Assembly: GCA_038858525.1 (NCBI GenBank) | Contig: JAWCFL010000006.1 | Span: forward strand, 41,759-73,758 | Direction: 5' to 3' | Length of the DNA stretch: 32,000 bases | Source: Candidatus Jordarchaeales archaeon | GTDB lineage: Archaea > Asgardarchaeota > Jordiarchaeia > Jordiarchaeales > Freyrarchaeaceae | In this document: piece after piece, positions 113 through 32,000 of the stretch | Position numbering within the stretch: the first letter of the stretch is position 1 | Layout of the letters: every line of letters starts with the position of its first letter | Position numbers and translations under genes: made by a program | The notes under the pieces: generated by a model | The model's database searches: none | What the model was told of the DNA's origin: nothing | The model's input: only the letters and a program-made list of their open reading frames with translations

Positions 113-1049
113 TCAATCTGGCTGGTGCTCGGCGGGCTCTATCGGTGTTTTCGTGGGTTTTTCACATCCCCTCTTGGTTACCAGAACAGGAATCTTGGTT
201 ACCAGAACAGGAATTTCCAGCCTTAATCCTCCCACTCCAGGCTTATTTATCTGGAGGTAAAGTTCTTCAACCATTCCTTCTCTAAACTCATAGCTCGTCC
301 AAGGCTCAAAGATAGTTATCGGCGGATACCACTCATGTCCGACTATTCCTATTCCGTGGCCGAAGACTGGTGGCGTATGTGGCGCATACTCCGTCTTATT
401 GAGCTTCTCCATGATTTTTTTCGCGACCTCGCCGACAGTTACCCCCGGCGCAACGTTGTCTATTAAAATATAGGAAAGCTCGACGAACGTTTCAATCATC
501 TTCCTCTGTTCGTTGTCTGCCTTCTCCATGACGACGTTGTATGCGAGGTCAGAATAGTAGAGTTCATATGTAGAGTGCAACTACCATTACTATTTCTCCT
601 TCTCTGATAACCTTATTTGATGGAGGGGTGCAGCCGCACCTCGAATACCCACCCCTATAACCTGACGCTACCTCGTCCCCTCCCGTTATCGGCCAATTCC
701 ACATCGAGCCGAGTTCTCTCATCACCTTCTCTCCCGCTCCAAGGACGCTGCCTCGGTTACTCCTACTCTCAGAGCCCTCAAGGCAGCCTTTATCCCCTCA
801 TCAGCTATGCTGGCAGCTTTCCTCATCCTCTCTATTTCAGCTGGCTCCTTGATCACCACAGCCTCATTCATAACCTTTGAAGCGTTAACAAAGGTGGCGT
901 CAGGAAGCTTCTCCTTCAGCATTGTGTACTCTGCTTGATTTATCACGCCTTCAATGAGACGCGGCGTCACCTCCGCTTCTATACCTATAACTGCTTTTTC
1001 AAGTCCCAGTTCCTTAATTCTGCTAGCAACCTGTTCAGGCCAATAATAA
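113..1049 (-). pseudogene. M24-family peptidase/creatinase-like pseudogene, 5'-truncated by the IS607 element
   Basis: Three consecutive frames: YYWPEQVASRIKELGLEKAVIGIE...IKEPAEIERMRKAASIADEGI, then VLGAGEKVMRELG...NKVIREGEIVMV, then LHSTYELYYSDLA...GHGIG..GHEWYP..EELYL..GGLRLE. Frameshifts at about 748 and 581, an in-frame 21-bp duplication, and the 5' part replaced by the IS right end at 1050. Confidence 0.8.
172..214. repeat. 21-bp tandem duplication (TCTTGGTTACCAGAACAGGAA x2), giving IPVLVTK-IPVLVTK
   Basis: Read directly at 172-192 and 193-213. Confidence 0.95.
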
Positions 1050-1144
1050 CCGTTGTCGGATAGTTAATTTTTTATAACTATCCGTTCCACCTCGGCTAAA
1101 GCCTCATGGGTGGCTTTCGCCGCCAACGGTAAAGGACGGCACAT
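1049..1144 (-). ncRNA. Putative omegaRNA scaffold (3' part) of element A, overlapping the tnpB 3' end
   Basis: Stem GCCGTC/GGCGGC whose loop ACCGTTG (1130-1124) is complementary to the terminal CAACGGT (1055-1049), plus a subterminal 10-bp hairpin. The position matches known TnpB omegaRNAs. The 5' limit is unknown. Confidence 0.6.
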
Positions 1145-2239
1145 GGAGAGTTTTCCAGCTATGTTCCAAGCGGCGACCAAGTGTCTATCTGCTTGGAAGC
1201 CGCACCGCCTGCATTTGAAGACGTGCCCATTCGGCTTACTAATTTCGCCACACATCGATGTCCTAGAGGTGTTTTCAGGCTTAACGGTTTCAGGCTTAAA
1301 GCCATGCTCCATCCCCTTATAGGAGATGTAGAACTGGATTCTTCTGAATGGTATGCTGTGGAGCCTCCTATTCATCACCCCACCATACCGAATCCTCTCC
1401 CTTATGTGGGTGAGCTCCTCCATTACAGGCTTAACGTTTTCCTCGGCAACCACACCAGCTACAATCTTCGCCGCCCTATGAAGTACGTCGTTCACCCTCC
1501 GCCTCTCCCTCCCAGAATACTTCGATAACAGCTCAGCTTTTGTCTCCCCCGAGGTCTTACCCTGAATGCTCCTCCTCTTCCTGAAGTACCTGCCTCTAAT
1601 GTGTTTCGCCTCACTTATATCTATCTTGATGAACCTGACCTTACCCGGCTTCACAACAGCCAAGTCTATACTACACTCGTTAACATCGATGCCCAGCACG
1701 CCTTCGGACTTTCTCTCCTCAACCGTCCTCCTAAAAGTAACATGAAGATAGTATTCGTTATTAAATTTTACAAGCCTTGAGCCTTTAACCTGCCAACCCA
1801 TGAACTTCATCGAATGCTCATGAACCCTGAACGGAATCGCGATGTGTCCTTTGTGCGTAGCCAGCCTTACGCATCCCCAACTGAACCAGAACAGGTGGGC
1901 GTCGTCCAAAAGAATGGTGTTTAGTTTCTCAATTCTTGGAGGGTTAATTTCCCCCCTCTTCCTAGAGAGCCTCCTGTAGGACTTGAATATGCTTAGAGCT
2001 TGTGTTATAGCCGTATAAATGTAATGGGATGGGTGGTTCGGATACTTCGTCCTCAGCTCCTTATAAATTGCTTCATGAAGCCTCCTACGTGAGGTCACAT
2101 TTAGATTCATAGCCCTATCTAGGCATGCTTTAACCATTTCGGAATAGCTCTTGAAGAGATCCTCGAGAACGATTGCTTGTTCATCGTTGGGCTGGAGCTT
2201 AAACTTGCAGGTCTCATTCAGCAATAAGCTGCCTGACAC
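1064..2239 (-). CDS. tnpB: TnpB, RNA-guided RuvC nuclease (IS607-associated)
   Basis: 391-aa ORF with RuvC-I VLGIDVNE, RuvC-II PVMEEL and RuvC-III ADRHLVAAWNI. The Zn ribbon is TSRTSMCG...CRRCG, with the first Cys missing. The true start may be TTG a few codons downstream. Confidence 0.9.
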   Translation of the reverse strand: MSGSLLLNETCKFKLQPNDEQAIVLEDLFKSYSEMVKACLDRAMNLNVTSRRRLHEAIYKELRTKYPNHPSHYIYTAITQALSIFKSYRRLSRKRGEINPPRIEKLNTILLDDAHLFWFSWGCVRLATHKGHIAIPFRVHEHSMKFMGWQVKGSRLVKFNNEYYLHVTFRRTVEERKSEGVLGIDVNECSIDLAVVKPGKVRFIKIDISEAKHIRGRYFRKRRSIQGKTSGETKAELLSKYSGRERRRVNDVLHRAAKIVAGVVAEENVKPVMEELTHIRERIRYGGVMNRRLHSIPFRRIQFYISYKGMEHGFKPETVKPENTSRTSMCGEISKPNGHVFKCRRCGFQADRHLVAAWNIAGKLSMCRPLPLAAKATHEALAEVERIVIKN

Positions 2240-2847
2240 TCTTAACCACCTTCTCGTACTTGTGGCTTCTCAAACCATAGAGCTTTTCAGCAAAGCTTGA
2301 AACCAAAGCGATGAGATCCTCTATTGATAGGCGTCTTTAGGCTCTTCACCATTAACGACTTTGATTTTTACGTTGTGAGGGGCGAAGTAACGCTCTAGGT
2401 GTTTGAAGCCGAACCTCGTAAGCCTATCCTTAAAAGCTATTCTTGAAAGCTATTATGACGGCTCCTACCTCTCTTTTCTCGACCATATCAAAGATCTTGT
2501 TCAGGGACTTTCTGTTTTCGTTGAGCCTGCTTGCCGCGTCCTCTAAGATCGCGATAACTTCATTTTAGGTTTGGCGTAACTCGGTAAACTTTGCTTTTGC
2601 CTCTCTAGATCTCCTTTCTGTTTCTGGTCATGGGGGGGAACTCTGGTATAAATCACGGCTTTTTGGGCGTGTCTGGTTTGGCGATGCCCATCAAACGTTC
2701 AACTTCACTTTCAGGTATCCTCCTCCTACCACCAACAGTCCTAACAACTCTAATTTTACCTTGTTTATCCCATTTTCTAAGCGTATTTGGGTGAATGCCT
2801 GATCTCTCGCAGGCTTCGCTGAGCGTCAGCAACCTCTCAATCATCAT
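2214..2847 (-). pseudogene. tnpA: IS607 TnpA serine recombinase, several frameshifts
   Basis: N-terminal MerR-like HTH (LLTLSEACERSGIHPNTLRKWD), followed in shifted frames by KAVIYTRV, DLERQ, LNENRK, KDRLTRFGF and EDLIALVSSFAEKLYGLRS. Stop TGA at 2216-2214 overlaps the tnpB start region. Confidence 0.85.
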
Positions 2848-3110
2848 ACAAAAATGTTAAGAAGTGTTATATAAAGTTATCTATTCAGGAACTGATGCAA
2901 ACCCTCACCGAAGCAGAACCTCTACTAGGCGACAACAATGGAGCAGCGCAGCCTCAAAGCGCCACTCATGTCCCCTCCTAAACCAAGAATAATAGGTCAC
3001 AGAGTGGGGATGCAGAATTTCCTCTCCTTCCCTGAGAAAGAAAGGTTGGCACTCCCTTTTTGGGTCTAAGTTTTTATTTTTCTTTTTCTAAGTTTAGTTG
3101 GGTGTGACCG

Positions 3111-4937
3111 TTGAGCGGGTTGAGTGACCGGAGGAGTCTCTTTTTCACTGATTTTGATGGGCGCTTCAGAGCTAGGCTGAGCAAGGTTGAGCCTGCTAGA
3201 GCTGCGTCGGACGAGCGGCTTGGCACGTCTGCTCCATACGCCTGCACGGTGCTCGTCGAGTACGATAGGGAGCTGCTGAGGCTTCTCGACGTCGGCATGC
3301 TTCTCGCAGTCAGGAACTTTAAGAGTGGGGGAGGAGTGGAGCGCTACACCCTCATGGAGCTGTCCCGCTTCTGGCCTGAGCACTTCGGCCTCATGGGTGT
3401 TAAGGAGCACCAATATTTCCCCATGCAGTTCGAGGTTATAGAGCAAACAGTCCAGGACTGGGAGACTGAGGATAAGGCGACCATGGCTATATACATTTCA
3501 GCGATACCTGTGAACTACGACCTCGTGGTCTCGGGCGAGTCTGCAGAATATGTTCGAGGCTTTTCCTATCCTGTAGTTGGCGAGCAGGTCTATGTCCTTA
3601 ACAGGGAAATGATAAAGAGCATGTATAACCGAGGCGTTGCAGATAAGGTTCAGGGGGAAGGAGGGCACGTTGGGAGCCTGAAGATGTTCGAGTCCGCAGG
3701 CGAGGAAATCCCCATATACGTCGACTATGAGTCCCTTGTCCGGTACCACTTTGGCATATTCGCCTTTACTGGAGGCGGGAAGAGCAACCTGCTCGCGACT
3801 CTTATAAGGAAGATAATGCGCCACACTCGGGACACGAAGGTCATAGTCTTTGATATATCCTGCGAGTATCCCTTCCTCCTCATGGACCTATTAGCGGACC
3901 CATCGATTCCATCCATGGTTGTATTGGAACGGATGGTCGACTCGCCTCAGGAGTTCAGCCTCTCCATAGTTAAGCCGAAAAGGTACGAAAACGACCCGCG
4001 CGTCCTTAAGGGGCTCGGAAGGATCCTTTCTATGGGCAGAGTTACGCACCTTGTGAGGCGTAGCGTTGAGACGCCAACGTTCGCAGACATATTTCAGACA
4101 CTCGATAGCTTAGCGAGCGCGAACGCTGATAAGCCAAACTACGTGAACGCCATCACCGAGATAAGAATGTTCACGGACAGCTATATGACGTCTAGAGGTT
4201 ACGTGGAGGAGGACGAGATAGACGAGGAGTACGTGAAACACCTGGACGAGCACGTGGACTACTTCAGGTCAACCTACTCGATCTACGAGAGAAGCAACCT
4301 TTACGGGTGGATTTCCTCCCTGAAAACGATATACTCGAAGATCAAGGAGAGGAGCGCTGAGGAGGAGGTTGCAGGGGGAGTCGCCCCGAAAACAATATCC
4401 GAAAAGCTGTTCGAGAGCGACCTAAGACTCATATGCCTATCGATAGGGGACCCCGAAACCATCAAGCAACTGACGATAAACACCGTCAGAAGCGCCCTAT
4501 CTAGGAGAAAGAGGGAGTTCAGCGTTAAGCCATATATCCTCTTCGTCTGGGATGAAGCGCAGGAGTTCGCCCCCGCCCCCGACAAGGCAAGAGGAGTAGA
4601 GAAAACATGTTCCGAGGAGGTTGAAAGGCTCCTCAGGCAAGGGCGAAAGTACGGGTTGGGAGGATGCCTCGTAACGCAGCGCATAGCCCACCTGAACACC
4701 TCAGCCCTACAGCAACTCCACACATACTTTGTCGGCACTCTCCCGAGACCCTACGATAGGGGACTGATCAGCAACACATTCATGGTGGACAGGGAGATCC
4801 TCGAAAGGACACTGGAATTCACGCCCGGAGAATGGCTCCTCTCAAGCTACATCGCAACAGGAATAACCAACGTGCCGATATTCATAAAGTCGGAAGACAC
4901 CGAGCAACAACTAGACAAATTCATGAACACATTATGA
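3111..4937 (+). CDS. HerA/FtsK-superfamily ATPase (HerA-like, N-terminal HAS-barrel-like region)
   Basis: 608 aa; Walker A GIFAFTGGGKS, Walker B VWDEAQEF, and the RQGRKYGLGGCLVTQR motif typical of HerA. Confidence 0.85.
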   Translation: MSGLSDRRSLFFTDFDGRFRARLSKVEPARAASDERLGTSAPYACTVLVEYDRELLRLLDVGMLLAVRNFKSGGGVERYTLMELSRFWPEHFGLMGVKEHQYFPMQFEVIEQTVQDWETEDKATMAIYISAIPVNYDLVVSGESAEYVRGFSYPVVGEQVYVLNREMIKSMYNRGVADKVQGEGGHVGSLKMFESAGEEIPIYVDYESLVRYHFGIFAFTGGGKSNLLATLIRKIMRHTRDTKVIVFDISCEYPFLLMDLLADPSIPSMVVLERMVDSPQEFSLSIVKPKRYENDPRVLKGLGRILSMGRVTHLVRRSVETPTFADIFQTLDSLASANADKPNYVNAITEIRMFTDSYMTSRGYVEEDEIDEEYVKHLDEHVDYFRSTYSIYERSNLYGWISSLKTIYSKIKERSAEEEVAGGVAPKTISEKLFESDLRLICLSIGDPETIKQLTINTVRSALSRRKREFSVKPYILFVWDEAQEFAPAPDKARGVEKTCSEEVERLLRQGRKYGLGGCLVTQRIAHLNTSALQQLHTYFVGTLPRPYDRGLISNTFMVDREILERTLEFTPGEWLLSSYIATGITNVPIFIKSEDTEQQLDKFMNTL

Positions 4938-5357
4938 AAAACTAGAGAAAAATGGAATTTTTGACCAAAAACTCGCAGACCTCTCGCACAAAAAAGTTTT
5001 TCAACCCGCCTCTCAGTTAACGGAAGCCACTCGAAACACATCAATCTCGCCTCCGATGAACATACCCCCACATTCATAGGCAGCACCCCCTACTCTTTAC
5101 GTGTAGCATTCCCGCTTTAGCCGCCCCCATCCCAGGCAGCAATTAAAGTTAAGTCATCCTCGCTGAACTCTTACGTTCTTAATTTTTCAACAAGATGTTG
5201 AGTCTACTACTTGGCCACCATCAATGAAAACCTTCTTTTTGCAAAAATCGCATAAAAAAGAGACACTAATGCTTTCTCGTCACACATCGCTTAAATCTTT
5301 CGCTTAACTACTGCATGATTTGAATGTTTTTATGAGAAAATATATTTTCAAAAACCA

Positions 5358-5365
5358 TTTATAAA
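5358..5365 (+). promoter_or_regulatory. TATA box upstream of the small secreted protein gene
   Basis: TTTATAAA preceded by an A-rich BRE-like stretch, 28 nt before the in-frame ATG at 5394. Confidence 0.5.
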
Positions 5366-5375
5366 AAATCGGTGA

Positions 5376-5852
5376 GTGATGGAGGATGAATTTATGCACG
5401 AAGCGCAAAAGAGAATTGTGTGCATGTTTTTCGTATTGCTTTTAGCATCCGCCCTAACACTCAGCACGGCAGCCTCCTCTGTGAGCGCAGACACCCAACA
5501 GGCTCTTGCTCCTAGTAGCACTGCATCAGCTCAAGCCGCCCAAGGTGGAATTTCGCCTTCTGCTTTACCACTATGCTTCGACTTGATAGGAGCATTATCC
5601 GCCGCTCTGGGTGCAGTAATTAACGCCATTGTTAGTGGAGTTCTCGGAGCAATGGGCAACGTGATAGGCGCCTTAATGGCTGGGCTTGCCAGCTTCATCG
5701 CCGGAATAATTGCCAGCATAGTCTCTGCTGTTTTAGGCGTTATTGCCACAGTAATCGTGGCGATAATCGCAGCTTTAATCGGAGGGATATTCGGGGGAGA
5801 AAAACCCCAAAGCGAGCAACCCGGAGAAAACGCGACAGCACATTTTCTCTAA
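5376..5852 (+). CDS. Small secreted/membrane protein with a long Gly/Ala/Ile/Val-rich hydrophobic segment
   Basis: Signal-peptide-like N-terminus (KRIVCMFFVLLLASALTLS), a Ser/Ala/Gln linker, about 67 nearly uncharged residues and a short polar tail. The start is probably ATG 5394. Confidence 0.7.
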   Translation: MMEDEFMHEAQKRIVCMFFVLLLASALTLSTAASSVSADTQQALAPSSTASAQAAQGGISPSALPLCFDLIGALSAALGAVINAIVSGVLGAMGNVIGALMAGLASFIAGIIASIVSAVLGVIATVIVAIIAALIGGIFGGEKPQSEQPGENATAHFL

Positions 5853-6428
5853 AATCTCTCTGAAGAATCGCTGAACGAGCCTGACTTCAAAAGCGTTAAG
5901 CATCGAGGACTTTGGTTAAATCCATCACGTGCTTTTTTCATTCTTTTTGTTACATCCAAAATATTGAGACATACAAATAAATTGAGATATAAAGTGAGGA
6001 ATAAACTGCAAAGTGCATCGTCAATCAATAATAGCATTTTTGGCCCTAGATTCTTGAACGGCAAGGTTCCTCGTAGTTAACACGGAATTTCTCCGCCGTT
6101 CCTAAAATCTGACCTGGCAACTGCACTTCACCATTCCCCACCATAGTTACAATTTTTTAACCTTCAACTTACTTGGTTTTTCTGAGAACGAGCACAGAAA
6201 CGCACACTGAAAGACCTCGAAGTAGTTTATCATCAGCGAATTCAAATGCAGGCGTTCAGCGCCTTAGCGCACCTTAAAGCCCTAAAGTTAACATTAACTG
6301 TTTCTAGGTTGCTAAAATATTCTCCATGAACACTCCACAAGAGAAAAATCATCTTCGCAAAGGGGGGTTAATAAACAGTTTCTATCTAATATAAAGTTTA
6401 TTATCTTGCATATAACTTTGGTGACCTT

Positions 6429-7044
6429 GTGCCTGAGAAGCTCTACACTAATGGTGAGGTTGCGAGGACTTTCGGGGCTTCCTATGTCGCTGTTAAGAAG
6501 TGGGCTTATTCTGGTAAGGTTAGGCTTATTAAGACGCCTGGCGGGAAGTATAGGTTTCCCGAGAGCGAGGTAAAGCGGCTTCTTGGAGGGCGGACTCCGA
6601 AGGGAAGGGCTGTGATTTACGACAGAGTGGGTGCAGCTGACCAGTGGGAGGATTTGGAGAGACAGAAGCAAAGGCTCATTAGGTATGCCAAGAGTAGCGG
6701 CTACAGGATATAGTGGTTCTTGAGGACATAGCTTCCGGGTTAAACGAAGAATAGGAAGAGCTTGATGAGGCTTTTTGAAGTGGTTTCACAGAAACAAGTG
6801 GAGGTCGTCTTCATAACATAGGGATAGGCTTACAAGGTTCGGCTTCAAGTATTTAGAGGCATTCTTTAATTCTCATGGCTGTAGAATAGAGTGCTTAGAT
6901 GCTGAAGAAGTTAAGGAGCCACAACAAGAGCTTATAGATCTAATAGCCATAGTTACGAGCTTTGCTGGGAGAATCTATGGAGCGAGAAGCAATAAGAAGC
7001 GGAGGGTTGTGGAGGCTGTTGAGCAGACGATTAGAAACAATTAA
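6429..7044 (+). pseudogene. tnpA: IS607 TnpA serine recombinase, frameshifted
   Basis: HTH (LYTNGEVARTFGASYVAVKKWAYSG) and RAVIYDRVG..DLERQ, then in shifted frames EDIASGLNE, RDRLTRFGFKYL and LIAIVTSFAGRIYGARS; TAA at 7042-7044. Confidence 0.85.
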
Positions 7045-8415
7045 ACTAGCGGCGAGCTTCAAGCTGAATGGTTTTGTGCCAGACCGAGTTATTCCAAGCC
7101 TACAGGCAGATATTAAGCGAGCTCTTAGACTATGCCTGCGATAGGGGAGTCTCAAGCTTTAAGCGCTTAAAGTCCGAGAAGTATTGTGACTTAAGGGCGA
7201 GGTACCCGAGCTTGCCTATATCAGCAGTTTCGTGGTATATAGGTTTAAATAGAGGTTGATTACTTTGTTCTTAATGATGTCTACTCTAAAACCTGCCCAG
7301 TCTGTTCAGGAAGCATGGCTTCCTATCCGGGCAGGATATTAAACCTTCAGATGCGGGGAGAAGGGTTCCCCCAAAGAGCCCTCAATGAGTTAATCGAGGG
7401 GGAAGGGTTAAGTAGGAATGAAGGTAACAATTCACTATGTATTCCTACTTAACTCAGAACCCTTCACACTACATTTATACTGCATGCCCGATGGCATGCT
7501 TAATATACAAATCCTTCAGGAAGCTGAAAGGGAGGAATAAAGTTAGGTTAGGTCTGAAGCCGCTATTCAGGAAAGACGTTATAATGCTCGACGACCACCT
7601 ATTCAGCATGAACCTCGATAAATGGGAAGCTCCCGTTGCAACGGAAGCTGGGAGAATAGTGTTCAGAATCCTTCATGGAACATGTCATGAGAAGTTCAGG
7701 GGCATGAAGGTTGGGCAAGCATGGCTCGTCAGAAGGCGCGATGGCCATTATTTGAAGGTTGTCTTCAGCAAGACCGTAGAGGTTGCTGAACCTAATGGGA
7801 AAAAATTGGCTATAGACGTAAATGAAGCAGCGTAGCCTACGGCACGGAGAACAAGATAGGCGTCCTTAAGACTGGCGAGAAAGCCATAAGGACGGCATAC
7901 TTCCTGAAGATGCGTAGACTCCAATCCAAACTGAGGCTCAACGAGAAGCCGATACTTGCGAAGTATAGGGGTAGAGAGACGAGGAGGGTGGAGGCAATCC
8001 ACCATAAAATCGCAAACAGTCTCATCGAGGAGGCTAAGAGACAGGGCTGCACAACAAAATAGTCCTCGAAGACCTCAAGCACATCAGAAGACGCATAAGA
8101 AAATCTAAAGCTCTTAACGGCAGATTGAATAGGTGGGGCTTTCAGAAAACTCCAGCACATCATAGAATACAAGGCTAGCTTAATAGATTAAGCGTATTTT
8201 ATGTTAAAGCTGGGAGCACATCAAGTCTATGCCCAAAATGCAGGGGCAGGCTAAGCCCAAGCGGGTATAGGCTGATGAAGCGCCCAAGATGCGAACTGGA
8301 GGAGGACAGAGATATAGTAGCCGTGAAGAACCTCCTCCAGAGAATCCAGATAGATGTGCCGGCTTCACCCGTTCACGGCGAAAGCCCTCCCATGAAAGGA
8401 GGAAAGAAGAAATGA
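7031..8415 (+). pseudogene. tnpB: TnpB pseudogene interrupted by a 246-bp insertion, with further stops and frameshifts
   Basis: LRARYPSLP|SHYIYTAC rejoins when 7218-7463 is removed (compare YPNHPSHYIYTA in the intact TnpB). LAIDVNE, VLEDLKHIR, SSLCPKC, DRDIVAVKNL and DVPASPVHGESPPMKGGKKK* are recognisable in different frames. Confidence 0.85.
7215..7463 (+). mobile_element. Non-autonomous IS607-derived mini-element E1 (left end + TATA + omegaRNA-like scaffold + right end)
   Basis: CCT at 7215-7217 and 7461-7463. CC + 8 nt + CAGTTTC left end; TTTAAATA at 7244-7251; a collapsed tnpB tail reading YSKTCPVCSGSMASYPGRILNLQMRGEGFPQRAL; a 13-bp inverted repeat at 7407-7419 / 7441-7453; TCAGAAC + CC right end. 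Confidence 0.85.
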
Positions 8416-8438
8416 AAGTTAACACTGGATCAGAACGG
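8354..8438 (+). ncRNA. Putative omegaRNA scaffold (3' part) of element B
   Basis: Same motif as in element A (ATGTGCCG...CCGTT..CGGCGAAAGCC.CCCATGA). Internal CCGTTC (8369-8374) is complementary to the terminal GAACGG (8433-8438). Confidence 0.55.
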
Positions 8439-8595
8439 CAGGTGAGCAAGAGAAGAAGAATCTATCACCTCTTTGTCGCAGCGAAAACATGCAACTTAAT
8501 TGGAACAGCGTTTTTAGACAGGAACATTTGCTCTCACGATACATCCTTTTTAGTTACATGTCAGCCACATCTGTCCCTAGGAACTCACTTTCCCT

Positions 8596-9654
8596 CTAAT
8601 ATATTTCTTCTTCACCTTTTTTTCCCTCCCCGGCCATTACCTTGACCTTCTCTTCCTTGACCTTCTCTTCCTTGACCTTCTCTTCCTTGACCTTCTCTTC
8701 CTTGACCTTCTCTTCCTTGACCTTCTCTTCCTTGACCTTCTCTTCCTTCCCGATTTTCTTTCTCAGCTTCTCATCCAGTATTTTTAGTACCTCTATGGCA
8801 TACAGGCTTCTGCCGCAGTAAGGGCACTCGATGACGTTGCCGCTTTCAGGAAGCTTTAGTTTTCCTCCACAATGCGGGCATGCAATCTCCTCAATTATTA
8901 ATCCTCTGGTTTTTAGCAGCAAGCGTATATGTTCGTAGCTCTCTTTTTCCTCAAAAAACACGCCGATTTCTGAAGCAAGCTGATCAAGACGCTCATCGAA
9001 ATCTTTCCTGAGTAACTCCACTTTCTCACCCTGAGCTTTCACTATGTTCGGCCACTCCGCTTTAAGCTTCCTGTATTTATATTCAACATTGTCTAAATTC
9101 GAACGCAGTTCGTCATTAAGCTTATCTACGGCCTTTTTTATCTCTCTTCCTTCCTTCTTCAACATTTTTATTTCCTTACGAGCTGTGGGACTTATCAGTG
9201 GAGACAACACATAAAGAATGTGGGCACCGTATAACGCTAACCCAAATAACAGACCAGGCAATCCATAGCTATAAATAAGTATAACAGTAACAAGGAAAAT
9301 TGAGGTATGCAAGCAGCACACAAAGAGCTTTCTAAACCTATCCTTTGCTTGATTCACGTACATCATTAACGCGTCTTCTAACTCGTGAAGCTTATAAGTT
9401 AAAGCCTCTATTTCCGGCGTATACTTATTTCGTAATTCGTCGCATTCTTTTACTTTCGCGTAATCTAAGCCTCGCACCATTAACTCATACTTTCTGCTTT
9501 CATCATTAAGGACACGTAAATCCTCGGCCAGCTTCCTTAACTTGCCTCTTAGCTCAGGCGCAAGCTCCGTGTACTCGAAACCGTACCCCAACTTCGACTC
9601 AAGCATCTTTTTTATTTTTCTCTCGTTCTCCCTAACCCGCTCATCATAATACAC
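8596..9654 (-). CDS. Membrane protein with coiled coils, two TM helices, a C-terminal Zn ribbon and an (EEKVK)7 tail
   Basis: 352-aa ORF; hydrophobic LHTSIFLVTVILIYSYGLPGLLFGLALYGAHILYVL; CPHCGG...CPYCG. Confidence 0.8.
   Translation of the reverse strand: MYYDERVRENERKIKKMLESKLGYGFEYTELAPELRGKLRKLAEDLRVLNDESRKYELMVRGLDYAKVKECDELRNKYTPEIEALTYKLHELEDALMMYVNQAKDRFRKLFVCCLHTSIFLVTVILIYSYGLPGLLFGLALYGAHILYVLSPLISPTARKEIKMLKKEGREIKKAVDKLNDELRSNLDNVEYKYRKLKAEWPNIVKAQGEKVELLRKDFDERLDQLASEIGVFFEEKESYEHIRLLLKTRGLIIEEIACPHCGGKLKLPESGNVIECPYCGRSLYAIEVLKILDEKLRKKIGKEEKVKEEKVKEEKVKEEKVKEEKVKEEKVKEEKVKVMAGEGKKGEEEIY
8641..8745. repeat. Perfect 15-bp tandem repeat x7 (CTTGACCTTCTCTTC), coding EEKVK on the minus strand
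   Basis: Seven identical contiguous units with no spacers. Confidence 0.97.
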
Positions 9655-10173
9655 GCTCGATATTCGTCTCCCCCCATTTCAGTTAGCCAACTATTGTAAA
9701 TTCCCTACCATCCTTCATAAACTTTTATGTTTTCATTTTTAAAAAGATTTTCTTTAATGTTTACCAGTGATATCGCATACATCATCACCTTTAATAGCCT
9801 CCTTCTTACCCCGACGCCTCTAAGCGTCAATAGCTTCCATAACAACAATCACCGTTTTCTCTGTGTAGCTCACATAGAAGCTAAAAGGGGACACGTTTTC
9901 ATACAAGAGACATTTTCACCGTCTCAGCTACCTCGTGAACACCACAACATACATGTGCAGACTAAAAGGGAAAGTAACGTTCAAGTAGGATGAAGCCCAG
10001 GGAACACGTAACTGCTACTAACACGGAAGGAGAACCTTTAATGTACCCGCCTAGAATCTTTTTAATAACCAAAAGGATGCCGCCAATTACCGTAGCGAAC
10101 GGTAATTAAGAGAAATATTAAAAAGCAGAAAAAAATTAAAATAGTAACTGATAAAAGGATTTCTCTCTATTTT

Positions 10174-11757
10174 GTGGAGGAGAACATGAAGAGAGCGGCA
10201 TGGAGAACTTACATGGCAGTGTTGCTAGTAGGAGTGCTGGCGCTCACATTGGTAGCAATGCAAATATCAACGCCAGCACAAGCACAAACACAACGAACGA
10301 TACAAAAGGCTCAAATGACATGGGCAAAAACGTATGGAGGAACGTATGGCGACTCCGCTTTTCGTGTGGCTGTTGATGGTCAGGGGAACATCATAGTGGT
10401 AGGCGAAACATGGTCCTTTGGTGCTGGTGGTAGTGACGTTTGGGTCTTGAAGCTTGACCCTAACGGGGACCCAACATGGCAGAAGGCGTATGGAGGAACG
10501 TATGGCGACTCCGCTTTTCGTGTGGCTGTTGATGGTCAGGGGAACATCATAGTGGTAGGCGAAACATGGTCCTTTGGTGCTGGTGGTAGTGACGTTTGGG
10601 TCTTGAAGCTGAACGCCTCAGGTAACGTCATCTGGCAGAAAGGATACGGAGGAGAGAGCAAAGATTACGCTTGGGGTGTTGCTGTTGATTCTCAGGGAAA
10701 TATAATAGTAGCGGGAGGAACTGAATCCTTTGGTGCTGGTGGTAGTGACGTTTGGGTCTTGAAGCTGGACCCTAACGGGGAACCAACATGGCAGAAGACA
10801 TATGGGGGAGCGAGCAACGAGTGTGCTCTTGATGTTGCCTTTGATGTTCAAGGAAACATTATAGTGTCAGGGTACACTTACTCCTTTGGTGCTGGTGGCA
10901 GTGACGTTTGGGTCTTGAAGCTGGACCCTAACGGGGAACCAACATGGCAGAAGACGTATGGAGGAATAAACGACGACTATGCTTCTGGCGTTACTGTTGA
11001 TGCTCAGGGGAGCATAATAGTAGCGGGAGGCACAAACTCCTCTAGAGCTGGGGGATGGAACGTTTGGGTTTTGAAGCTTAACAGCTCAGGAGACACCATA
11101 TGGCAGAAAACGTATGGGGAAGCGAAGACTGACGTTGCCTATGATGTTACTGTCAACGCCCAAGGAAACATTATAGTGTCAGGGTACACTTACTCCTTTG
11201 GTGCTGGTGGCAGTGACGTTTGGGTCTTGAAGCTGGACCCTAACGGGGAACCAACATGGCAGAAGACGTACGGAGGAACTTATGAGGACTGTGCTATGGG
11301 AGTTGCCGCCGATAATGAAGGTATAATTGTGGCTGGGTTTACGTCATCCTTTGGTGCTGGGCTTCGAGACCTCTGGGTTTTGCGTATAAGTTCGAATGGT
11401 GAAATTTACAATTCAATATCCGAATTCACCATAAAAAATACTAGCGTGGCGCCTACAACAACAGCGGCTTCCCCCTCACCTACTAACGCTGCAATTTTAT
11501 CGACGAACGCGAACTTGAGCGATACGCAAGCAATAATAACAAATACCAACGCGGCAATAAACACGCAGGCACCGCCTTCCCCATCCTTTTCACCACCTAT
11601 TGAGGAGCAGTTTTTGCTTCTGCTTCTAGTCCTCGGGTTGTATGACTCGGTGGAGAATGCATCTCGAAGTAGTGTGGTTTCCATTGGCTTTTTCATAATT
11701 CTTTTTGGCGACATCAGTTTGTACGTTTTTCTTTATCGAAGGTGGAGACTTGCGTGA
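10174..11757 (+). CDS. Secreted, probably membrane-anchored 7-bladed beta-propeller repeat protein
   Basis: Signal peptide (start probably ATG 10186); seven 52-aa repeats W-x-K-x-YGG...V-x-VD-x-QGNIIV-x-G...FGAGGSDVWVLKL; Ser/Thr-rich stalk; hydrophobic C-terminus ending RRWRLA. Confidence 0.85.
   Translation: MEENMKRAAWRTYMAVLLVGVLALTLVAMQISTPAQAQTQRTIQKAQMTWAKTYGGTYGDSAFRVAVDGQGNIIVVGETWSFGAGGSDVWVLKLDPNGDPTWQKAYGGTYGDSAFRVAVDGQGNIIVVGETWSFGAGGSDVWVLKLNASGNVIWQKGYGGESKDYAWGVAVDSQGNIIVAGGTESFGAGGSDVWVLKLDPNGEPTWQKTYGGASNECALDVAFDVQGNIIVSGYTYSFGAGGSDVWVLKLDPNGEPTWQKTYGGINDDYASGVTVDAQGSIIVAGGTNSSRAGGWNVWVLKLNSSGDTIWQKTYGEAKTDVAYDVTVNAQGNIIVSGYTYSFGAGGSDVWVLKLDPNGEPTWQKTYGGTYEDCAMGVAADNEGIIVAGFTSSFGAGLRDLWVLRISSNGEIYNSISEFTIKNTSVAPTTTAASPSPTNAAILSTNANLSDTQAIITNTNAAINTQAPPSPSFSPPIEEQFLLLLLVLGLYDSVENASRSSVVSIGFFIILFGDISLYVFLYRRWRLA
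10331..11400 (+). repeat. Intragenic 156-bp repeats x7
   Basis: Period is 156 bp. 10331-10454 equals 10487-10610 (124 bp identical) and 10849-10958 equals 11161-11270 (110 bp identical). Confidence 0.9.
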
Positions 11758-11889
11758 AGCTCCTGACGGAAGCCCCGTCCTCTCCTGGCGCAGTTACTAT
11801 TATAAGTAGCAACGTGCGAAAATGCATTTGCAATAGTAATTAATCTATTCATTTTTAATCTAAGCTTCAATCTGAGTAGTAATTAATTA

Positions 11890-12480
11890 AATCATAGAGC
11901 TCTTAACGGTAAATTGGCATGGTTACTCGGTGGTTTGATGGAGTTTTCCGCTATTAAAGATGAAGGTCTTGAACGTCTTGTGCGATTAAAAGCTAAATAG
12001 TTGCTCGGCAGTTTCCAGATATATAACTTATTGAGGTTGAAGCCGCCTAAAATTTGCCTAATATGTGGCGAGACAAATGAGCTGAATGGGCGCGTCTTAA
12101 GTGTATGTGAGACTTAAGCGGTAGGATTCTGAACTGCGTAGTCTTTGGTAGACTTGTGTAGCTCTTGGTTTTCATCGAGCCCGTTCTGGGCTCACATCGC
12201 TCTCTAACCCTGTCGAGTCGAACCCGCCCCATACATCCACGCCAAGCCCTTTCGAGCCTGAGGTCATCTGTATGGGGAAAGTCCCCCCATCTGAAGGTGG
12301 CATCATCCGTAGGAAGCCATGCTTCCAGAGCAGAGCCCGGCTCCGGAAAGGTTAATGAGCAAGTCTATTTAAATCTATCTTGAAACTGTTTTTTGAAGGC
12401 GCTTCGCCGCCGTTTTTGGCATTGTAAATTTCCGGCGTGCCGCCCTTATCGTTGGCGGTGAAAACCCCTCGGGAGCTTTA
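11890..12480 (+). pseudogene. tnpB: Heavily decayed tnpB 3' remnant interrupted by mini-element E2
   Basis: RALNGKL (compare KALNGRL in element B) and ICLICGETNELNGRV (compare MCGEISKPNGHV in the intact TnpB). After the insert comes the scaffold motif GTGCCGCCCTTATCGTTGGCGGTGAAAACC (from 12437). The element ends could not be resolved. Confidence 0.65.
12123..12399 (-). mobile_element. Non-autonomous IS607-derived mini-element E2
   Basis: Minus-strand CCT at both junctions (+ strand AGG at 12397-12399 and 12123-12125). CC + 9 nt + CAGTTTC left end; TTTAAATA at 12373-12366; GGAAGCATGGCTTCCTA and ACCTTCAGATG shared with E1; TCAGAAT + CC right end. Confidence 0.8.
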
Positions 12481-12550
12481 ATCGTGGAAGATGAGAAAGG
12501 TAGAATCTGTTGACCCCACGAAGGTGGAATCATCGTTGAGGAGATAGTGA

Positions 12551-31882: not shown

Positions 31883-32000
31883 GGGTTTGCAGCAGTTCCT
31901 GAATAGATAACTTTATATAACACTTCTTAACATTTATTTGTATGATGATTGAGAGGTTGCTGACGCTCAGCGAAGCCTGCGAGAGATTAGGCATTCACCC
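31883..32000 (+). mobile_element. tnpA: Left end and tnpA start of IS607 element C (close relative of element A), cut by the window edge
   Basis: GG + GTTTGCAG + CAGTTCC...; ATG 31942 gives MMIERLLTLSEACERLGIHP. It differs from the element A left end (2904 leftwards) by two substitutions and one 2-nt indel. Confidence 0.9.

Follow-up and report, generated by a model that had tools for sequence, protein, structure and literature searches.

The closest described relatives of the elements reported here are insertion sequences of the IS607 family, for which the overlap was given as "GG" by Boocock and Rice (PMC4058570). In ISXfa1 of Xylella fastidiosa, studied by Yoon, Skopintsev, Shi et al. (Nucleic Acids Research [NAR] 2023, PMC10711439), the core G belongs to the scaffold of the right-end element RNA (reRNA), the five bases that precede the guide are paired with a stem-loop at its apical loop, this pseudoknot is needed for activity (compensatory mutants rescue it partly, about 100-fold), and the target-adjacent motif (TAM), GGG, contains the core. 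In CboIStron, a combination of IS607 and a group I intron from Clostridium botulinum, TnpB activity returns in compensatory mutants of the pseudoknot, guide RNAs of IS605 and IS607 alike have the nexus-to-tail pseudoknot, and TnpA has a GG core and a TGGG target, with altered cores reprogramming integration only partly (10.1101/2023.11.20.567912); its terminal CGG is required both for excision and for the pseudoknot PK-2 (NAR 2026, PMC13521648). Here we describe four IS607-family elements (A, B, E1, and E2) in a 32,000-nucleotide stretch of the genome of a Candidatus Jordarchaeales archaeon (contig JAWCFL010000006.1, positions 41,759 to 73,758; hereafter the window), together with the CC-core lineage to which E1 and E2 belong.

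As in ISXfa1, the scaffolds of these elements end in the core dinucleotide (GG in ISXfa1), and a tail of ~5 nt pairs with the apical loop of a stem-loop. In contrast to ISXfa1, the present elements live in archaea, their GG members fall into several sub-families in which the outer pair varies, and a whole lineage, here known from sequence alone, has switched to a CC core, a GGGTT loop, and a YGCC left flank. The terminal dinucleotide is under the double constraint of TnpA excision and the omegaRNA pseudoknot, as stated in the CboIStron work, and the CboIStron target or TAM, T-G-[GG], parallels the W-Y-G-[CC] of the CC lineage. The elements here have no intron, unlike CboIStron, in which most dinucleotide substitutions put an end to transposition even if introduced at both ends; the CC core is a working alternative found in nature, in autonomous, HTH-only, and mini copies. 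The IS200/IS605 element ISDra2 also has a pseudoknot of nexus loop and 3' tail directly 5' of the guide, according to the account of its cryo-electron microscopy structure given in PMC10711439, but IS605 elements have a Y1 transposase and no crossover dinucleotide, so that their tail is free of the recombination-core constraint. ISFba1, with its RAGATH-18-derived reRNA (Cell Research 2024, PMC11061315), likewise combines an IS607 TnpB with a structured guide RNA, and has two pseudoknots and a G-rich TAM adjoining its left end. Its TAM and core differ from those described here, and the present scaffolds match no Rfam family (zero matches at the gathering threshold in the 32-kb window), RAGATH-18 included if release 15 holds it.

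The original prediction for this stretch overstated its novelty, because it was already in print that the 3' end of the scaffold forms the pseudoknot, that the scaffold includes the core G, and that the terminal CGG is doubly constrained (PMC10711439; 10.1101/2023.11.20.567912; PMC13521648). The principle of a core within the pseudoknot is already known for GG elements (NAR 2023, NAR 2026), and what appears to be new is a natural CC-core lineage with a compensated pseudoknot. No description of a CC-core IS607 lineage or of natural covariation of core and loop was found in the literature searched, which is not proof of novelty.

We consider it likely that the right ends of these IS607 elements encode a TnpB guide RNA, that its core-bearing tail closes a pseudoknot, and that the CC lineage has a matched loop. 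The right end would be transcribed as the guide RNA (omegaRNA, or reRNA), and its 5-6 nt tail would pair with the apical loop of stem-loop 1 (SL1, the "nexus"), closing the pseudoknot immediately ahead of the guide. In the DNA, this tail would form the right half of the TnpA crossover site, with a conserved AAC half-site and the 2-bp core at which the serine recombinase would exchange strands, and an identical core would bound the left end. Because half-site and core are fixed by recombination, the loop must follow the DNA site. One clade of TnpB elements would then have CC at both ends and a GGG(G)TT(C/T) loop, with a CCGTT(G/C/T) loop in the GG elements (A, B, and most relatives).

The observation behind this proposal, four internal segments each complementary to the terminus of its own element, is borne out at all eight segments. 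The pairs are ACCGTTG (1130-1124, minus strand) with CAACGGT (1055-1049) in A, CCGTTC (8369-8374) with GAACGG (8433-8438) in B, AGGGTTC (7362-7368) with GAACCCT (7457-7463) in E1, and GGGTTC (12225-12220) with GAATCC (12129-12124) in E2, the last with one G-U. The 3' segments are true termini, as homology ends past CAACGG in 14 family-A copies and past GAACCC in the third family, "family C", of which E1 and E2 are mini-elements; the 5' segments lie in the apical loop of the SL1 hairpin, inside the last tnpB codons. The seventh, outermost pair proposed for A and E1 through the first flanking base (A-T) does not hold up as part of this structure, being paired in only ~45% of sequences and lying outside the conserved helix. 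Since this pair forms in under half of the sequences, the conserved loop-tail helix is taken as 5-6 bp. The features concerned are as follows.

Element A: 1050-2904, minus strand; GG core at both ends (left 2904-2903, right 1051-1050).
tnpB of A: 1064-2239, minus strand; an open frame of 391 amino acids, with Pfam matches to Cas12f1-like_TNB (8.4e-14) and OrfB_IS605.
tnpA of A: 2240-2847, minus strand; a frameshifted pseudogene with the MerR-type helix-turn-helix (HTH) intact and the serine recombinase part broken.
omegaRNA scaffold of A: 1050-1145, minus strand; SL1 (1140-1137 with 1122-1119), SL2, SL3, and terminal strand (106.5 bits with covariance model R1, described below).
Pseudoknot 5' strand of A: 1124-1130, minus strand; ACCGTTG, in the SL1 loop within the tail codons of tnpB.
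Pseudoknot 3' strand of A: 1049-1055, minus strand; CAAC and GG, plus the first flanking T (1049).
Element B: ~6365-8438, plus strand; a decayed GG-core IS607 element, a more distant relative of A.
omegaRNA scaffold of B: 8353-8438, plus strand; strands CCGTTC (8369-8374) and GAACGG (8433-8438), 60.3 bits with R1.
Mini-element E1: 7215-7462, plus strand; CC core at 7215-7216 and 7461-7462, an insertion of 246 bp.
omegaRNA scaffold of E1: 7350-7462, plus strand; strands GGGTTC (7363-7368) and GAACCC (7457-7462), 52.2 bits with R1.
Mini-element E2: 12124-12399, minus strand; CC core at 12399-12398 and 12125-12124, with a divergent scaffold.

Element A has at least 14 further copies in this 2.09-Mb, 63-contig genome. 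The copies are homologous from (T)GG|GTTTGCAGCAG as far as …CCGACAACGG|T, giving family ends of (T)GG|GTTTG|CAGCAG on the left and CAAC|GG on the right (14 copies). The state of its tnpA was judged from three-frame translations of eight copies; in one (G000:C6:1-492) the first 164 residues are open as far as the contig end. The left end of B has its GG inside a G-run (6362-6367) followed by GTTAA|TAAACAGTTTC, and its right end reads …CAGAACGG, with GAACGG at 8433-8438. Searches by tblastn with TnpA and TnpB and by blastx show that the tnpA (6426-7038) and tnpB of B are both frameshifted, and that the latter is interrupted by E1. In E1 and E2 the left end is fused to a terminal fragment of tnpB together with the right end; E1 consists of a left end, a promoter, and a ATGATGTCT start joined to the family C tnpB tail, omegaRNA, and right end. 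Both left ends are homologous to that of A, with the core, 4-6 nt, a CAGCAGTTTC-type motif, and a TATA-like box (nhmmer E values of 4.2e-9 for E1 and 0.0035 for E2).

The identity of the terminal dinucleotide as the TnpA crossover core is supported by the matching dinucleotide at the left end, the rebuilt insertion site of E1, and the existence of autonomous CC members. Left ends were located with an nhmmer profile, an initial regular expression having proved too narrow, and their dinucleotide keeps a constant spacing of 4-6 nt to a CAGCAGTT-type motif that all of them share. At this position family C and its sister group, the CC-type elements, have CC, and the GG-type elements A, B, and D have GG, as do a dozen relatives. 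Read by eye, the left end of the CC lineage is G|CC|N4-6|(C/T)AGCAGTTTC in 47 of 48 loci, and its right end is GAAC|CC or GAACC|CC. A motif scan of both ends returned 26 CC/CC and 13 GG/GG pairs of ends and four apparent GG/CC discordances, namely the E1 left end nested in B, the chimeric locus L152 (see below), and two loci with ambiguous spacing (L047 and L090).

Deletion of E1 in silico (7217-7462, 246 bp) joins …AGC TTG CC|T TCA CAC… and reads …YPSLPSHYIYTAC…. The tnpB of B then gives a single blastx alignment of 165 amino acids, with 55-56% identity to two B-type TnpBs (E 4e-63), which crosses the junction without a gap within the motif LPSHYIYTAC; deleting 247 bp weakens the match (48% identity) and deleting 248 bp breaks the frame. 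Because the 246-bp deletion restores the gene, the E1 target is TTG-CC-TTC, flanked by CC with no other duplication. As in IS607 elements, the same 2-bp dinucleotide stands at both junctions, CC in E1 (where it occurs once in the rebuilt empty site, with no other target duplication) and GG in the 14 copies of family A. With E2 removed, the joined flanks match the tnpB tail of element A over the junction, though weakly (blastn, 68.6% identity, E 6e-4), and blastx of the E2 flanks against TnpB proteins gave no match. There is also a weak omegaRNA-like match at 12434-12501 (R1 E 0.045), in a tnpB-tail remnant around E2. Both CC mini-elements sit in the tnpB of a GG-type IS607, E1 in that of B and E2 in this remnant, so a guide derived from the flank would in each case consist of tnpB sequence from a rival family. 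An empty site for the full-length CC copy on contig C24 (G000:C24, L010) was sought in genomes G001-G004 and only a deletion allele was found, at G002:C1:546665-547075 in a genome of the same genus; ~1.9 kb is missing there (the family-C element and 555 nt of flank), and this is a deletion and not an empty site because 40 nt of the left end remain.

The CC-core lineage with a compensated loop, which the original prediction had proposed from the mini-elements, proves to be widespread and to include autonomous members with a MerR and Resolvase TnpA. It is found in Bathyarchaeia, Brockarchaeota, Nitrososphaeria, Archaeoglobi, Methanomethylicia, and Thermococci, and in the Asgard groups Jordarchaeia, Baldrarchaeota, and Odinarchaeota, and its loop is always GGG(G)TT, compared with CCGTT(G/C/T) in the GG type. 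One Jordarchaeia record has a TnpB identical to that of a relative in the same genus. Locus L139 encodes a TnpA of 215 amino acids with MerR/HTH_17 and Resolvase (PF00239, 3.8e-27) domains, followed by a TnpB of 393 amino acids, and has CC at both ends: the left end is G|CC|TGAC|AAACAGTTCC, and the right end has a GGGTTT loop and an AAACCC terminus. L145 and L148 have a similar layout with a full-length TnpA, as seen by tblastn and from their end sequences, the Pfam domains being confirmed for L139 only. The combination of MerR-type HTH and resolvase domain that marks an IS607 transposase is therefore present by Pfam in L139, the tnpA genes of A and B in the window being pseudogenes.

The commonest CC form is ~1.3-1.4 kb long, with a protein of 58 amino acids (HTH_17 1.7e-10, MerR) directly before tnpB; this corresponds to the DNA-binding domain of TnpA without the recombinase domain, and the form is distributed across many phyla of archaea. 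Examples are L011:2355-2531 (minus strand), L012, L013, L014, L029, and about 40 of the loci L108-L187. As only the HTH protein precedes tnpB, these copies are probably non-autonomous, and both they and the mini-elements would presumably be mobilised in trans.

The prevalence of loci with only the 58-residue HTH_17/MerR protein could also mean that CC is not a crossover core at all, that CC-type elements are not moved by serine recombination, and that GCC…CC is simply a conserved end or a TAM. We regard this as very unlikely. E1 has CC on either side without other duplication, and the host gene is restored exactly once E1 is excised; measured from the left-end motif that they share, CC and GG lie at homologous positions; and L139, L145, and L148 (with domains confirmed by Pfam in L139) have a full TnpA and CC at both ends. 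Moreover, the G that precedes CC at E1 is target DNA, within a Leu codon of the tnpB of B. Of 46 distinct left junctions of the CC lineage, 45 have G at position -1, 42 have T (24) or C (18) at -2, and 39 have A (21) or T (18) at -3, giving W-Y-G before CC, and in family A a T precedes GG in most copies. The W-Y-G-CC motif is probably the TAM, by comparison with the TGGG of the C. botulinum IStron and the GGG of ISXfa1.

Because MAFFT alignment of 14 scaffolds (A1) misplaced their 3' ends, a covariance model (R1) was built on a seed of six scaffolds (A2), with the three hairpins as pairs and with loop and tail left single-stranded, so that R1 cannot favour the pseudoknot. It matches ~130 full-length scaffolds in 18 of 101 related genomes, and in every family its matches begin within the tnpB tail and finish at the last conserved base, with the common order SL1, AAAG linker, SL2, SL3, and a 5-6 nt tail. 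Among 90 homologues aligned with R1 (A4), pairing over the whole structure reaches 88.3% and falls to 65.2% on shuffling. All four SL1 stem pairs covary, switching between G:C and C:G (GC/CG about 40:38), and the stem is 95.5% paired. The loop-tail helix, scored as seven pairs, is 86.7% paired, with a covariation of 0.276 compared with 0.100 in shuffled alignments (0 of 500 as high), and sliding the partner by 1-3 columns lowers this to 0.10 or less. At 49 independent loci, from a protein-based scan with one genome per species, the helix is 87.4% paired with a covariation of 0.253 versus 0.096. These are counts of sequences, which are related to one another, and not of events, and the percentages are lowered by false unpaired cells from a "C2" sub-family with a long SL3 (L015, L029, L141, L166, L128, L132, and L131), whose 3' end R1 mislocates; the true ends are GAACCCC. 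Chance as the source of the loop-tail pairing is ruled out by the shuffles and slides.

GG elements have C:G/C:G as their core pairs and CC elements have G:C/G:C, and the outer pair occurs as C:G, G:C, U:A, U:G, and G:U. Other compensated changes are seen in single elements, GGAUU/AAUCC in L149 and CUGUUG/CAACAG in L068. The latter locus (L068:201-300, minus strand; G001:C19) is a shortened family-A copy that keeps the pair ACTGTTG / CAACAG and has an apparent AG core, with no left end present. Covariation in a larger alignment had been proposed as the check on the omegaRNA pseudoknot, and both SL1 and the helix between its apical loop (5' strand) and the last 5-6 nt of the right end (3' strand) covary in the homologues aligned here, the helix scoring above all 500 shuffles. 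The claim that the crossover core doubles as RNA structure is similarly supported, as the same dinucleotide bounds the left end and lies in the loop-tail helix. By homology and from the literature, the RNA would be expressed, processed, bound by TnpB, and used to guide cleavage next to the TAM.

Matched changes of this kind would also arise if the internal motif were a DNA feature, in which the terminal TnpA site recurs in inverted form at a subterminal position of the right end and both copies are read by the transposase. Short inverted motifs of 6-7 bp at IS607 ends are indeed needed in excision (10.1101/2023.11.20.567912), and the G-U share of non-Watson-Crick cells, ~35%, is not decisively above that expected from transitions alone. 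However, the motif coincides exactly with a hairpin loop, the stem of this hairpin covaries in the manner of RNA, the extra copy is absent at the left end, and the core and outer pair toggle among C:G, G:C, U:A, and wobble in close relatives, which on a DNA basis would need repeated changes of protein specificity. In addition, the published compensatory mutants act at the level of RNA and TnpB, and PK-1 is dispensable for excision (PMC13521648). A purely DNA-level origin is thus very unlikely. Least probable of all is a nested helix closing a multi-branch loop with SL1 unformed and no pseudoknot, as RNAfold draws the minimum-free-energy structures of A, E1, and the C24 copy, since nearest-neighbour folding cannot predict pseudoknots, all four SL1 pairs change on both sides with 95.5% of cells paired (and if SL1 forms, the loop-tail helix is a pseudoknot by definition), and solved TnpB-omegaRNA complexes contain this pseudoknot, as relayed in PMC10711439.

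Several observations weigh against the guide-RNA pseudoknot with a core-matched loop and temper our confidence in it. The minimum-free-energy folds of A and E1 show the long-range helix as a nested closing stem, and the boundary between scaffold and guide is a putative one, assigned by homology. The three middle pairs of the helix (G:C, U:A, and U:A, from the AAC half-site) hardly vary and are uninformative, and a loop change of U to C, giving a C.A mismatch, recurs uncompensated in at least six sequences; both are expected if the DNA site is fixed and the loop alone can change. The recombinase domain is absent from most CC elements. Two members of the CC lineage, L011 and L165, end in GAACCT and not GAACCC, and L152 combines a GCT left end with a CAACGG right end. 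The covariation of the core is, moreover, a single event, although it comprises four coordinated substitutions together with the left-end core. The GAACCT ends may reflect insertion at a non-matching target dinucleotide, as in the CboTnpA experiments. L152 (2253-3584) is a chimera: its left end is of family C, with the core mutated to CT, its TnpB resembles that of family C, and its right end (CACAACGG), with a CTGTTG loop, is of the GG type. It is probably an immobile recombinant.

The history of the core was examined with a quick maximum-likelihood IQ-TREE tree of 37 TnpB proteins, in which all 10 GG-type rows fall on one side of a branch (89 in the Shimodaira-Hasegawa-like approximate likelihood-ratio test, SH-aLRT) and all CC-type rows on the opposite side (93). 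Since the two types split across one branch, the change from GG to CC is one switch. Of the claim that core and scaffold must evolve together, it stands that the loop matches the core in both lineages, but the change of core is one phylogenetic event.

The joined ends of the elements suggest what this switch may have been. In family A they read …GACAAC-GG-GTTTGCAG…, and in family C, as the reverse complement, …GACAAC-GG-GTTCTGAG…. The crossover site is nearly dyad-symmetric (…ACAAC-NN-GTTGT…), and only its central dinucleotide is asymmetric. We infer that the CC lineage has the GG site reversed relative to tnpB; such a reversal changes the RNA tail from AACGG to AACCC and so accounts for the change of loop from CCGTT to GGGTT. 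This can be extended to a joint reading in which the asymmetric core of a near-dyad IS607 site was naturally re-oriented in the CC lineage, with coordinated change of the left core, the right core, the omegaRNA loop, and the TAM preference of TnpB, the TAM being predicted as W-Y-G-CC instead of T-GG. After the switch the lineage would have spread over at least eight archaeal groups, for the most part in the form of HTH-only plus TnpB copies and of mini-elements that retain left end and guide-RNA scaffold; TnpA would move these, and TnpB would protect them, in trans, and the mini-elements in the window would have entered rival GG tnpB genes. Taken as a whole this joint reading is tentative, and we hold it to be possible without favouring it.

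The scaffolds of the mini-elements had been expected to be kept foldable, and here E1 and E2 part ways. Fold z-scores are -5.1 for A and -3.84 for E1, compared with -0.61 for E2 and 0.04 for B, both of the latter being no better than shuffled. The E1 scaffold is identical to that of the full-length element L109 in the columns compared (the first ~60 and last ~30 of the alignment), and a recent origin explains its foldability equally as well as upkeep. In E2 the complement of loop and tail is present, with U in place of C in the tail, but the hairpin that normally bears the loop is missing: in alignment with C42 its scaffold retains GGGTTC (12225-12220) and GAATCC (12129-12124) and the 3' arm of SL1 is absent. 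Mini-elements of left end and scaffold are common among the relatives, with both core types (L039, L052, L058, L088, L102, L176, L178, and L179). Those of the GG type (L039, L052, L058, L088, and L102) are 0.1-0.4 kb long, with little beyond the left end and the scaffold and right end, and L039 has two in tandem.

The CC lineage provides a natural counter-example to the bench result, obtained with one IS607 element, that almost no alternative core supports transposition; evolution crossed the core barrier once, and the lineage reveals what had to change together. Its natural pairs of CC-core TnpA and TnpB offer a system for testing whether and how small serine transposases recognise the overlap dinucleotide, and a C-rich TAM (YGCC) is predicted for its TnpB nucleases, a property that may be of interest for genome editing. 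The rule that the loop is the complement of AAC plus the core also allows right ends, cores, and mini-derivatives of archaeal IS607 elements to be annotated from sequence only.

Three further features of the window were recorded.

Further family-A copy, left end: 31884-32000, plus strand; T|GG|GTTTGCAGCAG, running off the end of the window.
Lone HerA-like ATPase: 3111-4937, plus strand; DUF87 (9.6e-17), between A and B.
Open reading frame of 352 amino acids: 8596-9654, minus strand; zinc-ribbon-like match, overlapping direct repeats with a 16-base unit (ccttgaccttctcttc) around 8640-8700.

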